Assembly: GCA_964360035.1 (NCBI GenBank)
Contig: CAYHUJ010000001.1
Span: forward strand, 2,176-66,175
From: an uncultured Candidatus Saccharibacteria bacterium
Lineage (GTDB): Bacteria > Patescibacteriota > Minisyncoccia > UBA6257 > JACRHY01
Direction: 5' to 3'
Length of the DNA stretch: 64,000 nt
Shown: one piece after another, positions 8,155 to 60,125 of the stretch
Position numbering within the stretch: the first letter of the stretch is position 1
Layout of the letters: the number at the start of each line of letters is the position of its first letter
Notes under the pieces: model-generated
Told to the model about the DNA's origin: nothing
Database searches by the model: none
Seen by the model: only the letters and a program-made list of their open reading frames with translations
Translations under genes and position numbers: made by a program

Positions 8155-8183
8155 AATCTTCGGACGTCGGACGTCCGAAGATT
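8155..8183. repeat. REP-A: 29-bp palindromic element AATCTTCGGACGTCGGACGTCCGAAGATT
   Basis: Perfect 14-bp arms around a central G. Contains the TCGGACGTCCGA core with an AatII site (GACGTC). Inverted copy of REP-C. Confidence 0.8.
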
Positions 8184-8208
8184 CTTGAATTGTGGTATCA
8201 TTACTTTT

Positions 8209-8898
8209 ATGGAAATTTATCATGTTCTTGACAGGGGAGTTGATAAAAGAAAAATATTTTTAGACAAAGAAGATTATTTTCGTTTTATTCACGATTTATT
8301 TGAATTTAACGATAAAGAAAATGCCGATCTCGCTTCCTATGTCTTTAATAAGCAATATTCGGACGTCCGACGTCCGAATATTGAAATTGGAAGGACTGAT
8401 CGCAAACCGAGGAAATTATTGGTGAAAATACACGCTTTTTGTTTAATGTCGAACCATTACCATTTATTACTTACGCCGGCCGTAGAAAACGGGATCGCTC
8501 TTTTTATGAAAAAAATCAACGGCGGATATGTAAAGTATTTTAATGAAAAATATGAAAGAAAAGGGACCTTATTTGAAGGGAAATATAAAAGAATTATAAT
8601 TAAAAATGAGGCGCATTTTATTCATCTGCCTTATTATATTCATTTAAACCCTCTTGATTTGGCGGCGCCGGAGTGGCGAGAGCGGAAAATTAAAAATTAT
8701 AAAAAAGCGATAAATTTTTTGGAATCTTATCGTTGGAGTAGTTACCTTGACTACATCGGCAAGAAAAACTTTCCGTCCGTTACCCAAAGAGAGTTTTTGA
8801 TGAATTTCTTTGAAAGTCCTAAACAATACAAAGAAAATATGATAAAGTATTTAGAGGAATTAGGTTTAGAAGAAATTAAAGATGTTTATTTGGAATAA
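8209..8898 (+). CDS. REP-associated tyrosine transposase (RAYT) / IS200-like Y1 HuH transposase
   Basis: N-terminal YHV.DRGVDKRKIFLDKEDY, the HuH motif SNHYHLLL, and the catalytic-Tyr region RKGTLFEGKYKRII. The ATG at 8209 (MEIYHV...) fits the family N-terminus better than the TTG at 8185. Confidence 0.75.
   Translation: MEIYHVLDRGVDKRKIFLDKEDYFRFIHDLFEFNDKENADLASYVFNKQYSDVRRPNIEIGRTDRKPRKLLVKIHAFCLMSNHYHLLLTPAVENGIALFMKKINGGYVKYFNEKYERKGTLFEGKYKRIIIKNEAHFIHLPYYIHLNPLDLAAPEWRERKIKNYKKAINFLESYRWSSYLDYIGKKNFPSVTQREFLMNFFESPKQYKENMIKYLEELGLEEIKDVYLE
8354..8382. repeat. REP-B: AATATTCGGACGTCCGACGTCCGAATATT, in-frame inside the RAYT gene (encodes YSDVRRPNI)
   Basis: Perfect 14-bp arms. Same core as REP-A/C but the flanks are AATATT instead of AATCTT. 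Confidence 0.8.
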
Positions 8899-11560
8899 AA
8901 GCAAAATAAATCTTCGAATGTTCAATCTTCGGACGTCCGACGTCCGAAGATTGGGGGTGGTGGTTGTTGCGACGCTTGTTTTTATTTTTTATTCCGGCGA
9001 AGTTTCCGCCGCTACGCGTACTTGGGACGGCGGGGGAGCCGATAACAACTGGTCAACGGACGCCAACTGGTCTGGTGATCGGGCCCCGTCTCTCAACGAC
9101 GATGTAGTCTTTGACGGCACTTCGGTGAAGAATTCGGCAATGGACAGCGGGTTGACAATCCTAAGCTTCAATGCCAGCTCCACTTACACCGGAGCGTTGA
9201 GTATCGCCAATGGAAACACCTTGACGGTAACCGGCAACTGGACATATAACGCCGCCAATTTTGACGCCGGCACATCCACGATAAAATTTACCGGCAACAC
9301 TGCTACTTTCACTCCCGGCGCTGTCAATTACTATAATCTTGAAGTGGCAAAACCTAGCAGTGGCTCCGACCTCAATATTTCCGGCACCGCCACCACTACC
9401 AATGATTTAATTATCAGCGCCGCCAACGATGACACCAATAACATCAACACCGGCACCGTCAATGTGGGCCGCAACGTCAGCATTACCAACGCTAATTTCG
9501 GAGGCGGCACGGCAACGGTGAACATGAACGGCTCCGGCAGTCAAAGCGTTTCGTCAAGCGGCGGCTGGCTACCTAATTTTTCCGTGAACAAGTCAGCCGG
9601 CACTCTTAGTTTGATTGGTACTGTTGTAATCGGAGGAAACTACACTCACACCGCCGGCACCGTTGACGCCGGCACTTCCACCCTGAAGTTTGTTGGCGGT
9701 ACCACTACTTTCACTCCCGGCGCTGTCAATTACTATAATCTTGAAGTGGCAAAACCTAGCAGTGGCTCCGACCTCAATATTTCCGGCACCGCCACCACTA
9801 CCAATGATTTAATTATCAGCGCCGCCAACGATGACACCAATAACATCAACACCGGCACCGTCAATGTGGGCCGCAACGTCAGCATTACCAACGCTAATTT
9901 CGGAGGCGGCACGGCAACGGTGAACATGAACGGCTCCGGCAGTCAAAGCGTTTCGTCAAGCGGCGGCTGGCTACCTAATTTTTCCGTGAACAAGTCAGCT
10001 GGCTCCACCACTATTGATAGCAATGTACGGGTGGGCGGGACATTGACGGTTACCGCCGGCGAGCTGCGCCACAACGCTTATACTCTACAAATTGACGGCG
10101 GAACGACGATTTCCTCCGGCGGAACGTTTTCCGATTACGCGACCGCTTCCAGCACGATTAAATTCGGTTCCACGATCACGAACAATGGAACGTTAATTTT
10201 GAACGGCGGAGGAACAAGTTGCGGCGACTTTGACTATGTTCTATTGCGTTCCACCGCCGACGGCACCCAGCGTTCCTGGTCCGGTTCCGGAACCTTCAAC
10301 ATCCAGGATGCCGACCTGAAAGACATGGGAGCAACCAGTGGTACCGTAACAGTTCGCAGCGGCACGAACTCCGGCAATAACGGCGGTTCGTGGACTTTCA
10401 ACTCCAACTGTCTTCCTTCCGCTTCCTTTGACAACGATTTTTCTTCCTGGAGCTCCGGCAACGCTACCGTCAATTACAAACTGATTGACCCCAATTCCGA
10501 CGCGTCCAATATCTCTCAAACGGCCGATTCAGGGATGGAATATTCCGCCGACGGCTCAACTTATTCGGACGCGACGCAGGGAACGGGAGGGGATGGAATG
10601 ACCAGCCTTTCTTCATCCGCCTCGCCCGGAACGTCTCATTCTTTCGCCTGGGCCAGCGCAACCGACCTGCCGAACACTGAAGATCTAACCGTCTATCTGC
10701 GCATTCGTCCCAATGACGGCAGTGAAAACGCTTCCGACTGGGCGACCTCCTCCGCTTTCGCGATTGACAACGTCGCCCCATCTTCCGTCGGCGCCCCGAC
10801 TTTCGGAACAATCACCTCTTCTTCCGTTGAAATCGTCAAGCCGACAGCTGTTACGGAAAACGGCTCCGGCCTCAATACCTGGCAGGCGAGAAGAGATTCG
10901 GCAACTGTCCTTTCCGCCGTCGCCACCACCACGGCTTCCGTCTCCGATTCTTCTTTGTCGGCGAATACCCAATATGCCTATGACGTCCGGTTCGCCGATT
11001 ACGCCGCCAACGCTTCCGCTTACGGGACGTCCGCTTCCAAATACACCCTAGCTCCGACTCCGGCTAATCTGGCCGCCGTCGCGGCAAGAATTTCCATCAC
11101 TCTTTCCGTTGACCAATTCACCAACGATACCGCCGGCTCGTCCGGATACTACTTCGTCAATTCCACCGCCTCCACCACCTCCGGCTGGATCCAGGCGAAC
11201 TTCTGGACCGACACCGGCTTGACCTGCGGCGTTTCCTATTCTTACACGGTCAAACACAGAAACGGCGACGGAACGGAAACGTCAACCGTTTCTCTTGACG
11301 CTTCAGCGTCCGCCTGCCAGTCGGAAACGGCCGCCCGGGTGTCTTACGCGATATCCCCGCTGAGAATTTACGACGCGCCAAAGCCGGAGAAAGTTTTGCC
11401 TATTCCCGCTTCGGAAGTTTATCGGGACAAAGCGACGCGGATCGCCGAGCTGCAAACGCAAATCCGGCAGCTGCAAGCGCGACTTCTGGATCTTTACCGC
11501 TTCCTGCTTCAGGCGTTGATTAAAGAGCTGGAGGAAAGATCGGGACGTATAAATTTTTGA
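8882..11560 (+). CDS. Large secreted surface protein/adhesin: signal peptide, autotransporter-associated beta-strand (PATR-like) motif, tandem beta-rich repeats, FN3-like domains, C-terminal coiled coil
   Basis: MFNLRTSDVRRLGVVVVATLVFIFYSGEVSAA looks like a signal peptide. TRTWDGGGADNNWSTDANWSGDRAPSLNDDVVFDG matches the PATR consensus. T/S/G/N-rich repeats are followed by FN3-like segments. Alternative start ATG at 8918. Confidence 0.7.
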   Translation: MFIWNKSKINLRMFNLRTSDVRRLGVVVVATLVFIFYSGEVSAATRTWDGGGADNNWSTDANWSGDRAPSLNDDVVFDGTSVKNSAMDSGLTILSFNASSTYTGALSIANGNTLTVTGNWTYNAANFDAGTSTIKFTGNTATFTPGAVNYYNLEVAKPSSGSDLNISGTATTTNDLIISAANDDTNNINTGTVNVGRNVSITNANFGGGTATVNMNGSGSQSVSSSGGWLPNFSVNKSAGTLSLIGTVVIGGNYTHTAGTVDAGTSTLKFVGGTTTFTPGAVNYYNLEVAKPSSGSDLNISGTATTTNDLIISAANDDTNNINTGTVNVGRNVSITNANFGGGTATVNMNGSGSQSVSSSGGWLPNFSVNKSAGSTTIDSNVRVGGTLTVTAGELRHNAYTLQIDGGTTISSGGTFSDYATASSTIKFGSTITNNGTLILNGGGTSCGDFDYVLLRSTADGTQRSWSGSGTFNIQDADLKDMGATSGTVTVRSGTNSGNNGGSWTFNSNCLPSASFDNDFSSWSSGNATVNYKLIDPNSDASNISQTADSGMEYSADGSTYSDATQGTGGDGMTSLSSSASPGTSHSFAWASATDLPNTEDLTVYLRIRPNDGSENASDWATSSAFAIDNVAPSSVGAPTFGTITSSSVEIVKPTAVTENGSGLNTWQARRDSATVLSAVATTTASVSDSSLSANTQYAYDVRFADYAANASAYGTSASKYTLAPTPANLAAVAARISITLSVDQFTNDTAGSSGYYFVNSTASTTSGWIQANFWTDTGLTCGVSYSYTVKHRNGDGTETSTVSLDASASACQSETAARVSYAISPLRIYDAPKPEKVLPIPASEVYRDKATRIAELQTQIRQLQARLLDLYRFLLQALIKELEERSGRINF
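8924..8952. repeat. REP-C: AATCTTCGGACGTCCGACGTCCGAAGATT, inside the 5-prime end of the surface-protein ORF (encodes NLRTSDVRRL)
   Basis: Exact reverse complement of REP-A. Confidence 0.8.
9262..10065. repeat. Tandem duplication with a 402-bp period; cores 9303-9597 and 9705-9999 are identical (295 bp)
   Basis: The identical 64-aa antisense ORFs at 9331..9525 and 9733..9927 in the ORF track are offset by 402 nt. The protein repeats a roughly 134-aa unit. Confidence 0.85.
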
Positions 11561-54653: not shown

Positions 54654-55439
54654 TTATATTTTCTTTTTAAACGGCTTCGTGCCCGCCGCCGCGGCGATTT
54701 TCATGAACTCCGGCGGTTTCAAGCTGGCGCCGCCGACCAGCGCGCCGTCAATTTCCGGACGGTTGATAAAATCGCCGGCGTTTTTCCCGTTGACGGAGCC
54801 GCCGTACAGCACTTTGACGTCCGACATCCGACATTCAACCATTAGCCATTTTTTTATAAATTTCGCCATTTCCACGGCGTCGGCGGGGGTATCCGGCGTT
54901 CCCGTTCCGATAGCCCAAACCGGTTCGTAAGCAATAATAATATCCGACGTCCGACATCCAACATTTGACATTTGACGCTTGACATCCGATAGATTTTTTT
55001 CCAGCTGACTTTTTACAAACTTCTCCACTGCTTTTTTGCCGCGGCGGCGGATCGGCAAACCCTCGCCGACGCATAAAATCACTTTCAATCCCGCTTTCAG
55101 CGCCGCCAAAACTTTTTTGTTTATCATTTCGTCCGTTTCTCCCAAAAAACGGCGGCGTTCCGAGTGGCCGATGATGGCGTACTCGGCTCCTGAACTCCGC
55201 AGCATCTCCGCGGAAATTTCTCCGGTATAAGCCCCGTTGTTTTCCCAAAAAACGTCTTGAGCGCCGAGTTTAACGCCCGTTTTTTTCAGCAGGACGGCAA
55301 TTTTTTCCAAACAAACGAAAGGCGGGCAAATGACGATTTCAGCTCCGCGCGGCTTCGCCGCCGCGAGCTTTTTCACCGCCGCTTTCCAATCCGCCGCCGG
55401 ACAATTCATTTTCCAGTTGGCAACAAGCAATTTCCCCAT
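54654..55439 (-). CDS. tpiA: Triosephosphate isomerase, with REP-derived in-frame segments
   Basis: ANWKMN, IGHSERR, AYEPVWAIGTG and YGGSV motifs. It contains SDVKRQMSNVGCRTSD and ECRMSDV, both encoded by REP-like DNA. Confidence 0.85.
   Translation of the reverse strand: MGKLLVANWKMNCPAADWKAAVKKLAAAKPRGAEIVICPPFVCLEKIAVLLKKTGVKLGAQDVFWENNGAYTGEISAEMLRSSGAEYAIIGHSERRRFLGETDEMINKKVLAALKAGLKVILCVGEGLPIRRRGKKAVEKFVKSQLEKNLSDVKRQMSNVGCRTSDIIIAYEPVWAIGTGTPDTPADAVEMAKFIKKWLMVECRMSDVKVLYGGSVNGKNAGDFINRPEIDGALVGGASLKPPEFMKIAAAAGTKPFKKKI
54816..54836. repeat. Degenerate REP-like sequence GACGTCCGACATCCGACATTC inside tpiA (encodes ECRMSDV)
   Basis: Shares GACGTCCGACATCC with the copy at 54941 and the CGGACGTCCG core with REP-A/B/C. 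Confidence 0.6.
54941..54990. repeat. Composite degenerate REP-like insertion inside tpiA (ATCCGACGTCCGACATCC...GACATTTGACATTTGACGCTTGACATCCGAT)
   Basis: It encodes SDVKRQMSNVGCRTSD. That is about 6 residues longer than the corresponding loop in canonical TPIs (recalled E. coli and B. subtilis sequences). Confidence 0.6.
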
Positions 55440-58028: not shown

Positions 58029-58083
58029 GCAAAGCGGAGCTTTGCGGCGGCTGGCGGCGGGATTTTAGATGGCTTGCGGGGGG
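58029..58083. repeat. IR-L: left 55-56-bp inverted repeat (GCAAAGCGGAGCTTTGCGGCGGCTGGCGGCGGGATTTTAGATGGCTTGCGGGGGG)
   Basis: Its reverse complement occurs at 60070-60125 with one mismatch. Confidence 0.85.
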
Positions 58084-58091
58084 AAATTTCC

Positions 58092-60053: not shown

Positions 60054-60069
60054 TGTGAAAGGGGTTTTC

Positions 60070-60125
60070 CCCCCCGCAAGCCGTCTAAAATCCCGCCGCC
60101 AGCCGCCGCAAAGCTCCGCTTTGCC
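60070..60125. repeat. IR-R: right inverted repeat, reverse complement of IR-L (55/56 identical)
   Basis: Direct comparison of the two sequences. Confidence 0.85.

Follow-up and report, generated by a model that had tools for sequence, protein, structure and literature searches.

The stretch of DNA analyzed here (64,000 nt, referred to as the window) comes from an uncultured Candidatus Saccharibacteria bacterium, a member of the Patescibacteria. On its minus strand it carries tpiA, which encodes the essential glycolytic enzyme triosephosphate isomerase (TPI), and two segments of this gene, here called site 1 and site 2, are built of tandem 7-nt units. Elsewhere in the window, a gene whose product resembles the REP-associated tyrosine transposases (RAYTs) is accompanied by three repetitive extragenic palindromic (REP) sequences, whose core shares its heptamer with the tpiA segments (Table 1). 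An initial annotation had taken both tpiA segments for degenerate REP DNA inserted in frame, in the manner of the Rickettsia palindromic elements (RPEs).

The tpiA reading frame matches Pfam TIM (E = 2.4e-80) and TIGR00419 (179.9 bits; cut-off, 130.6), the catalytic residues K10, H92, and E172 are intact in the protein alignment, and the AlphaFold2 model has a predicted local distance difference test score (pLDDT) of 85.4 and a predicted template modeling score (pTM) of 0.88. The genome is that of a groundwater bacterium; L-numbers denote the compared DNA loci and P-numbers the TpiA homologues. The exact window protein occurs on at least 20 contigs, and in 10 loci, assembled independently from several groundwater samples of the Hainich, the gene is identical or differs by 1 to 4 synonymous single-nucleotide polymorphisms (SNPs); therefore, the arrays are not an assembly artefact, a possibility that the initial annotation had left to be checked.

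Table 1. Features of the window and in-frame REP palindromes at other Patescibacteria loci
Feature	Position	Strand	Product, unit, or peptide	Support or remark
tpiA coding sequence	54654..55439	-	TPI, 261 aa	Pfam TIM, TIGR00419, AlphaFold2 model
Site 1 heptamer array	54942..54989	-	About 7 units GGAYGTC/AAATGTC (mRNA sense); peptide SDVKRQMSNVGCRTSD	Tandem Repeats Finder, lag-7 match
Extra 21 nt of site 1 compared with canonical TPI and P0014	54942..54962	-	Three heptamers; VGCRTSD	7-residue gap compared with 6nee
Site 2 heptamer array	54816..54836	-	GAATGTC GGATGTC GGACGTC (mRNA sense); peptide ECRMSDV	
RAYT-like gene (Y1/HUH transposase family)	8209..8898	+	229 aa from ATG 8209	Mechanical open reading frame start at 8185
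REP palindrome, 5' flank of RAYT-like gene	8155..8183	.	AATCTTCGGACGTCGGACGTCCGAAGATT	Hairpin -14.2 kcal/mol, z -6.6
REP palindrome inside RAYT-like gene, in frame	8353..8383	.	YSDVRRPNI	Hairpin -14.9 kcal/mol, z -8.3
REP palindrome, 3' flank of RAYT-like gene	8923..8953	.		Hairpin -16.0 kcal/mol, z -6.6; inverted relative to 5' copy
In-frame REP	L056 1415-1453		rpoB	
In-frame REP	L085 274-290		gatA	
In-frame REP	L077 3109-3125		trxB	
In-frame REP	L060 5888-5904		IleRS-like gene	
In-frame REP	L101 3522-3538		pgi	
In-frame REP, 4 copies	L076 4449-5315		Glycosyltransferase	

Read on the plus strand, site 1 is ATCC GACGTCC GACATCC AACATTT GACATTT GACGCTT GACATCC GA and site 2 is GACGTCC GACATCC GACATTC. 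Tandem Repeats Finder reports a period-7 array at each of them, and the lag-7 match at site 1 is 0.63, compared with 0.20 for the remainder of the gene. In the alignment with the solved TPI 6nee, site 1 is 7 residues longer, close to the lengthening by about 6 residues given in the initial annotation, and site 2 is 3 residues shorter, that is, a replacement and not an insertion. P0014 reads LSDVRSQMSDVIIAYEP at site 1, where the window protein has LSDVKRQMSNV+GCRTSDI+IIAYEP, and the 21 nt that are extra in the window are the part of site 1 most similar to the REP. The AlphaFold2 model places both segments at helix ends and in loops before β6 and β7: site 1 forms an extra short helix (residues 153 to 160) and a loop (161 to 166) from α5 to β6, and site 2 lies at the end of α6 and in the loop leading to β7. 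The α-to-β connections of TIM barrels are on the side opposite the catalytic face, and both arrays are modeled at such junctions, on the face of the barrel away from the catalytic residues.

According to the initial annotation, these segments are made of degenerate REP DNA. Every related tpiA that we inspected as DNA is heptamer-periodic at the same sites with other units, so the periodic DNA predates the REP-like sequence in the window gene. Periodicity at lag 7 is present at both sites in all of the seven further Patescibacteria tpiA genes, with the units CAGATGT, AAATTCT/ACATTCT, AATCTAC, ATTCTAC, GGCGTCA, AATCAAA, CTTGTCN, and CTCAATT, which sometimes differ between the two sites of one gene. 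Including the window, the lag-7 match in the eight Patescibacteria genes is 0.37 to 0.73 at site 1 and 0.52 to 0.90 at site 2, compared with 0.24 ± 0.07 and 0.24 ± 0.08, respectively, in 61 non-Patescibacteria tpiA loci. This outgroup came from a metagenome scan for tpiA relatives, most of whose matches were non-Patescibacteria loci at 40 to 46% identity. A third array is found in L212 (10159-10193) and L213 (10134-10168) ahead of the KLGAQD strand, at the α1-to-β2 junction, with the units CTAAAAG, present four times (VLKAKSYKLKAK), and CTAAAAC. The peptide KAKSYKL is also seen at site 2 of P0004, so that one peptide occupies different sites in different lineages.

The signal can be followed at the protein level, where the alignment has lineage-specific peptides at both sites (e.g., FSILNSR, KFLILNSKLRNH, VSCRLSHV, and SDVRSQMSDV). 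We scored stretches of 12 residues, out of 12, by how closely a pure 7-nt repeat could encode them; over 120 homologues, this heptamer-codability peaks at 7.3, 7.5, and 6.0 at the three sites, the background being 4.67 ± 1.02 and the controls lying at 4.7 to 5.1, and the signal at the tpiA sites is present in most of the 120. The same three sites are hypervariable in segment length, which hardly changes at control segments. Since every unit passes through all three reading frames, selection on amino acids cannot make the periodicity, which must be a property of the DNA. In AT-rich arrays, TAC or TTA stands precisely where the pure unit would yield an in-frame TAA; these substitutions are the mark of selection cleaning up a repeat that arises at the DNA level.

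Counting stringent arrays only, we found 14 at lag 7 in the 193 kb of tpiA loci and 7 in 272 kb of other Patescibacteria DNA, against 0 to 2 at other lags in either set. More rarely they also occur in the genes for IleRS, LeuRS, SecA, a glycosyltransferase, and a GalT-like protein and in intergenic DNA; a rough count puts their density in tpiA at about 55 times that in the remaining Patescibacteria DNA examined. Three arrays adjoin one another in the intergenic DNA between rnc and nusB of L219 (7038-7157), namely (ATTTAGG)x5, a CTAAATT-type array, and (CTAGTCG)x3, the first two being inverted relative to each other. The unit AAAAGTC (KSQKSKV) recurs in unrelated genes and genomes (L034 1532-1577, L065 1244-1272, L073 7745-7783, and site 1 of the L011 tpiA), always oriented so as to avoid the in-frame TGA of its reverse complement. 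The Hainich tpiA of L217 carries, within the AT-rich array of site 1, a 16-nt GC-rich perfect palindrome, TCCGCCAGCTGGCGGA (10505-10525); we considered it as a second REP landing in an array, and it proved uninformative because it is the sole copy in 20 kb.

The REP family itself, which the initial annotation had proposed for the window, does exist there, as three perfect palindromes with hairpins at the Y1/HUH transposase-like gene. The product of this gene scores 33.6 bits with Pfam Y1_Tnp, above the gathering score of 23, and 34.5 bits with NCBIfam REP_Tyr_transpos (NF047646 equivalog), under the cut-off of 80, and a sequence search of the PDB gave no match at E <= 1. Among its 4,945 homologues, all those with a source name are from Patescibacteria, and the top 120 are 62 to 78% identical to it. 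Across 20 homologues, the histidines H83 and H85 (NHYHLLL) and the tyrosine Y126 do not vary; the product has the HUH motif and a conserved tyrosine of the Y1 transposase fold.

The three palindromes (AATCTTCGGACGTCSGACGTCCGAAGATT) are 29 to 31 nt long, with the core (GACGTCS)x2, and fold as single-stranded DNA (ssDNA) into hairpins of -14.2 to -16.0 kcal/mol (z -6.6 to -8.3). The arms at 8155-8183 and 8924-8952 are 100% complementary and inverted around the gene. Their ends read AATCT...AGATT, with CGTC present internally only, within GACGTC, and no GTAG or CGTC tag at the termini. At the position of the internal palindrome, the family keeps the peptide [SN]DV[RG]R[PR], in whose center R (CGA) and G (GGA) alone are found, one for each orientation of the central base; this suggests that what is conserved within the gene is the DNA element and not the peptide. 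The internal palindrome is a conserved part of the family and not an insertion. In L220 (5960-6710) the lineage variant TATGGACGTCSGACGTCCATA, and in L219 (1150-2100) the variant ATCTATCGAC[ATCGCAA]GTCGATAGAT, is present alike at the 5' flank, the internal site, and the 3' flank. The segment 8154-8953 of the window is a REPtron, with three co-varying copies in cis, each with a stem of 10 to 11 bp around a 7-nt center, and the gene shares two features with RAYTs, in that cognate REPs flank it in inverted orientation and that gene and REP co-vary (L219 and L220).

Several observations concern the neighborhood of the REPtron and the rest of the window. The 892-aa open reading frame (ORF) 8882-11560 looks like a secreted repeat protein and includes a 402-bp tandem duplication (9233-9934; 92 to 95% identical); since the 3' REP, read as NLRTSDVRRLG, overlaps its predicted start, the actual start probably lies farther downstream. 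Inverted repeats of 58 nt, 97% complementary, are found at 58029-58086 and 60067-60124 and bracket about 2 kb with three minus-strand genes (by correspondence with L001), including one for a 450-aa SH3_3/He_PIG protein, and a related 26-mer lies at 726-751. No inversion between these repeats was detected, as all three assemblies across the segment are colinear with the window.

When we compared the tpiA segments with the REP, the shared core reported in the initial annotation was borne out. The exact 14-mer GACGTCCGACATCC is common to both segments and, with up to two mismatches, has 9 matches in the window, where 0.24 are expected; these fall at the two tpiA sites and at the palindromes at 8155, 8353, and 8923. 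Each tpiA segment agrees with the REP core at 13 of the 14 positions of this 14-mer. In a tiled alignment to the palindrome, the tpiA segments are the best match outside the palindromes (score 26 to 27; background, 12.3 ± 2.4); a REP-like tile of equal score at about 22276 was set aside as ordinary GC-rich coding DNA. Beyond the core, the likeness ends. The REP arms AATCTTCG...CGAAGATT are absent from the tpiA segments, so that identity fails over the whole element and only the core matches. Folded as ssDNA, the segments reach only -0.1 and -1.3 kcal/mol (z +1.4 and -0.3) and form no hairpin. A 21-mer of site 1 in shifted register (54946-54966) matches the REP at 16/21 positions and site 2 at 19/21, and the 21-mers of the two sites are read in different frames; this greater likeness of the tpiA 21-mers to each other (19 to 20/21) goes against the reading of the initial annotation. 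Of the claim that the segments are REP-derived and palindromic, the shared core heptamer stands and the palindromy does not: the segments are direct heptamer repeats, neither palindromic elements nor REP copies. As for insertion of the RPE kind, site 1 has 21 nt more than 6nee and P0014, yet the extra DNA is non-palindromic and lies within an older array, and site 2 adds no length.

Insertion of that kind does occur in the phylum. The 17-mer REP core is found in many metagenome-assembled genomes (MAGs) of Patescibacteria, some with 33 to 39% GC, invariably within longer perfect palindromes whose outer arms are copy-specific; many high-GC matches in Actinomycetota and other phyla are near the chance level estimated for 596 Gb. 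The canonical (GACGTCS)x2 palindrome is in frame in rpoB (twice), an IleRS-like gene, gatA, trxB, pgi, and a helicase gene, where it encodes peptides such as SDVRRP, GRRTSE, and RTSDVR, and its presence in such core genes indicates that RPE-like in-frame insertion of REPs takes place in Patescibacteria. The outer arms vary among copies even in one genome (L076 5262/5299, L095 7036/7153, L067 3787, and L105 2003), and the palindrome including them reaches 41 nt in L095. Such copy-specific arms suggest either insertion at the center of existing palindromes or inverted duplication of the target.

On this basis, the tpiA segments could be true REP insertions, in frame in two permissive loops, that lost their arms and palindromy by mutation while the heptamer spread by slippage, the agent being the RAYT-like enzyme or another palindrome-spreading process, as in rpoB and gatA of other Patescibacteria. 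We regard this as unlikely. It agrees with the presence of the core in frame in many housekeeping genes elsewhere, often with extra degenerate heptamers (GACGTCC GACGTCC GACGTTT in L085, ...GACGTCC GACATTC in L076), with the dispersal of copies in other Patescibacteria loci (42 of the 46 lie away from any RAYT-like gene), with the REP-like nature of the extra 21 nt of site 1, and with the rank of the tpiA segments as the top REP matches of the window. What it has to explain is the loss of all arms and hairpin potential in 21-mers that are 19 to 20/21 identical and therefore young. In addition, site 2 adds no length and has the length and GTC register of older arrays (e.g., L216, with GTCTCTT GTCGCTT GTCCCAT GTCGCTG), but with GGAT/GGAC at the variable positions. 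The canonical REP peptide is in none of the 269 other TpiA proteins examined, and dispersed REPs are missing from the window, since a search of all 64 kb with a pattern of the REP architecture returned no copies besides the three at the REPtron.

The array sequence changes fast. Compared with its syntenic orthologue in L011, the closest found (75% aa identity), the window gene differs at both sites, the arrays being 38% and 48% identical and the remaining gene 81%; the L011 tpiA has nothing REP-like at either site (best score, 17). Identical sequence in a relative at these positions, which would have refuted the initial annotation, is therefore not seen here. In site 1, the first part (LSDVKRQMSNV) is common to P0014 and P0114, and the next 21 nt are lineage-specific and REP-like. 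Within the window lineage, position 54960 in the site-1 array shows a synonymous A/G polymorphism between strains (V160, GTT/GTC); four co-occurring strain assemblies have the G allele, with which the unit again begins with GAC and the 21-mers of the two sites reach 20/21 identity. This SNP is the sole array variant, and array length does not vary across 11 assemblies.

These data also bear on whether the likeness to the REP is a coincidence, in which an old family of NNNNGTC units came by drift, in a genome of about 50% GC, to differ from the REP core by no more than one base, without any information passing from the REP. Such units are at hand in relatives (GATGTCA, GGCGTCA, AAAAGTC, and CTTGTCN); GATGTC or GACGTC is already in their site 1 (CAGATGT four times in L212, GGCGTCA GGCGTCA GACGTCA in L215), the peptide LSDV(K/R)xQMS(N/D)V is common to P0014 and P0114, and with units homogenized within an array few independent changes would be required. 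Set against this are the 13/14 matches at two separate sites when the expectation is 0.24 per window (up to two mismatches), the orthologue in L011, which has no REP-like sequence, and the fact that the REP-like units are the lineage-specific, recently added portion. We deem coincidence quite improbable.

A further alternative would give the segments a function, as a long-range mRNA helix formed by the two self-complementary segments, a translational pause at barrel subdomain boundaries, or an on/off switch of tpiA operated by slippage (a contingency locus). The minimum-free-energy fold of the mRNA does pair the two segments with each other, arrays are retained at the same positions throughout a large sub-clade, and some relatives have 3 to 4 perfect units (e.g., CTCAATT four times in L217). 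The fold energy is nevertheless ordinary (z = -1.05; 31 of 200 shuffles fold as well or better), and the pairing is not conserved, because the AT-rich units of relatives are not self-complementary. An Rfam search returned sub-threshold noise and no family match. The window arrays are imperfect, their length is unchanged in the 11 assemblies, and the repeat-number polymorphism with frameshifts by which a contingency locus is recognized is absent at the assembly level. Shorter TpiA database entries are not frameshifts in the arrays: two "partial" NCBI entries (177 aa and 86 aa), suspected of marking contigs that end at the array, break at residues 84 to 86 instead, and TpiA matches with 82 to 86% coverage, considered as frameshift or phase variants, merely have later annotated starts. 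Neither the mRNA fold nor Rfam nor the comparison of array lengths gave evidence for a function of the segments; we consider a functional element very unlikely, and the segments would be tolerated passengers with no function of their own.

The explanation that we favor, with roughly even confidence, is that tpiA carries old, self-renewing heptamer arrays that were recently rewritten with REP-core units and are not copies of the palindrome. The tpiA genes of this sub-clade have hypervariable heptanucleotide arrays with lineage-specific units at α-to-β junctions, with a third site in some relatives. Slipped-strand mispairing, short-patch conversion between arrays, or both would make and keep the periodicity at the DNA level, and the part of selection would be limited to purging stop codons and frameshifts. 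In the window lineage, the arrays would then have been rewritten recently with the heptamer at the center of the genome's REP hairpin: site 1 may have gained three units (21 nt, VGCRTSD), while site 2 may have been converted at constant length. The two 21-mers, 19 to 20/21 identical and read in different frames, would be copies of one another, and either the REP core or the other tpiA site could have been the template, direction and mechanism being our suggestion.

Several points weigh against this explanation. We know of no mechanism that favors a 7-nt unit. Pure slippage by 21 nt predicts length steps of 7 residues and was rejected, since the lengths of the homologues do not follow such steps, so simple in-frame slippage alone is insufficient. 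The roughly 55-fold richness of tpiA in arrays relative to the surrounding DNA is not accounted for. In 149 more distant TpiA representatives (50% identity) the array signal is weak, which makes the arrays a feature of the sub-clade rather than of the phylum at large. A single genome supplies the link between REP core and array unit, and no other locus examined has both tpiA and a REPtron. The neutrality of the arrays is an assumption.

A bolder, and in our view improbable, reading is that an active process at the DNA level in this sub-clade writes and renews heptanucleotide arrays in essential genes, taking the units from the REP repertoire of the genome, maybe by means of the conserved, domesticated RAYT-like HUH enzyme, the gene of which carries the palindrome in frame. 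The three α-to-β junctions of TpiA would be standing hot spots. If this were true, it would amount to repeat dynamics in protein-coding DNA of a kind not described before. As first stated, the finding would be one more example of an in-frame REP or RPE, in a new phylum. If a specific process lies behind the arrays, they are a new source of variation in protein length and sequence in ultra-small bacteria and bear on the annotation, alignment, and phylogeny of proteins of the candidate phyla radiation (CPR); if they are merely tolerated slippage, they are a curiosity. In the literature searched, we found no paper connecting RAYTs or REP doublets forming hairpins (REPINs) with Patescibacteria, and three features appear to be undescribed: a Patescibacteria-wide REPtron family with a third palindrome in frame in the transposase-like gene, tandem arrays of heptanucleotides, and solely heptanucleotides, in housekeeping genes, and the persistence with rapid turnover of such arrays at three structural positions of an essential enzyme over a large sub-clade.

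Among known systems, in-frame REP or RPE insertions in core genes are familiar from Rickettsia, Opitutus, and others, RPEs being about 100 to 150 bp long. In-frame REPs have been documented in other phyla (PMC3733652). The intragenic GTAG- and CGTC-tagged REPs (Di Nocera et al. 2013, PMC3733652) and the RPEs resemble the tpiA segments in being short in-frame repeats at tolerated sites of housekeeping genes, and the former also belong to a family tied to a "REPtron", an IS200-like tyrosine transposase gene with the repeats on either side. In rpoB, gatA, trxB, and other genes, the canonical Patescibacteria palindrome behaves like these elements, although its ends, AATCT...AGATT, are unlike the GTAG/CGTC tags. 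The tpiA segments, instead, are direct, non-palindromic 7-nt repeats without hairpin potential, much shorter than RPEs, at positions that hold other heptamer arrays in relatives.

Contingency loci, such as the 7-bp repeats at HMW1A of Haemophilus influenzae (PMC8262952), share with tpiA the tandem 7-nt unit, not a multiple of three. Unlike them, the tpiA arrays are imperfect and of constant length in 11 assemblies; the gene that holds them is an essential one of glycolysis, and its reading frame is kept in all homologues, with no evidence of switching. The REPIN-RAYT systems (Bertels and Rainey; bioRxiv 10.1101/2021.07.10.451892) are similar to the REPtron in having a single-copy, highly conserved HUH/Y1 gene between inverted cognate palindromes, in the co-variation of palindrome and gene between lineages, and in the dispersal of copies in other genomes. 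They differ in that the Patescibacteria protein falls under the NCBIfam RAYT cut-off and has no PDB sequence match. Described REPINs are almost exclusively extragenic doublets (bioRxiv 10.1101/2021.07.10.451892), whereas many Patescibacteria copies are single and intragenic, and a third palindrome, in frame inside the gene, is conserved across the Patescibacteria family.

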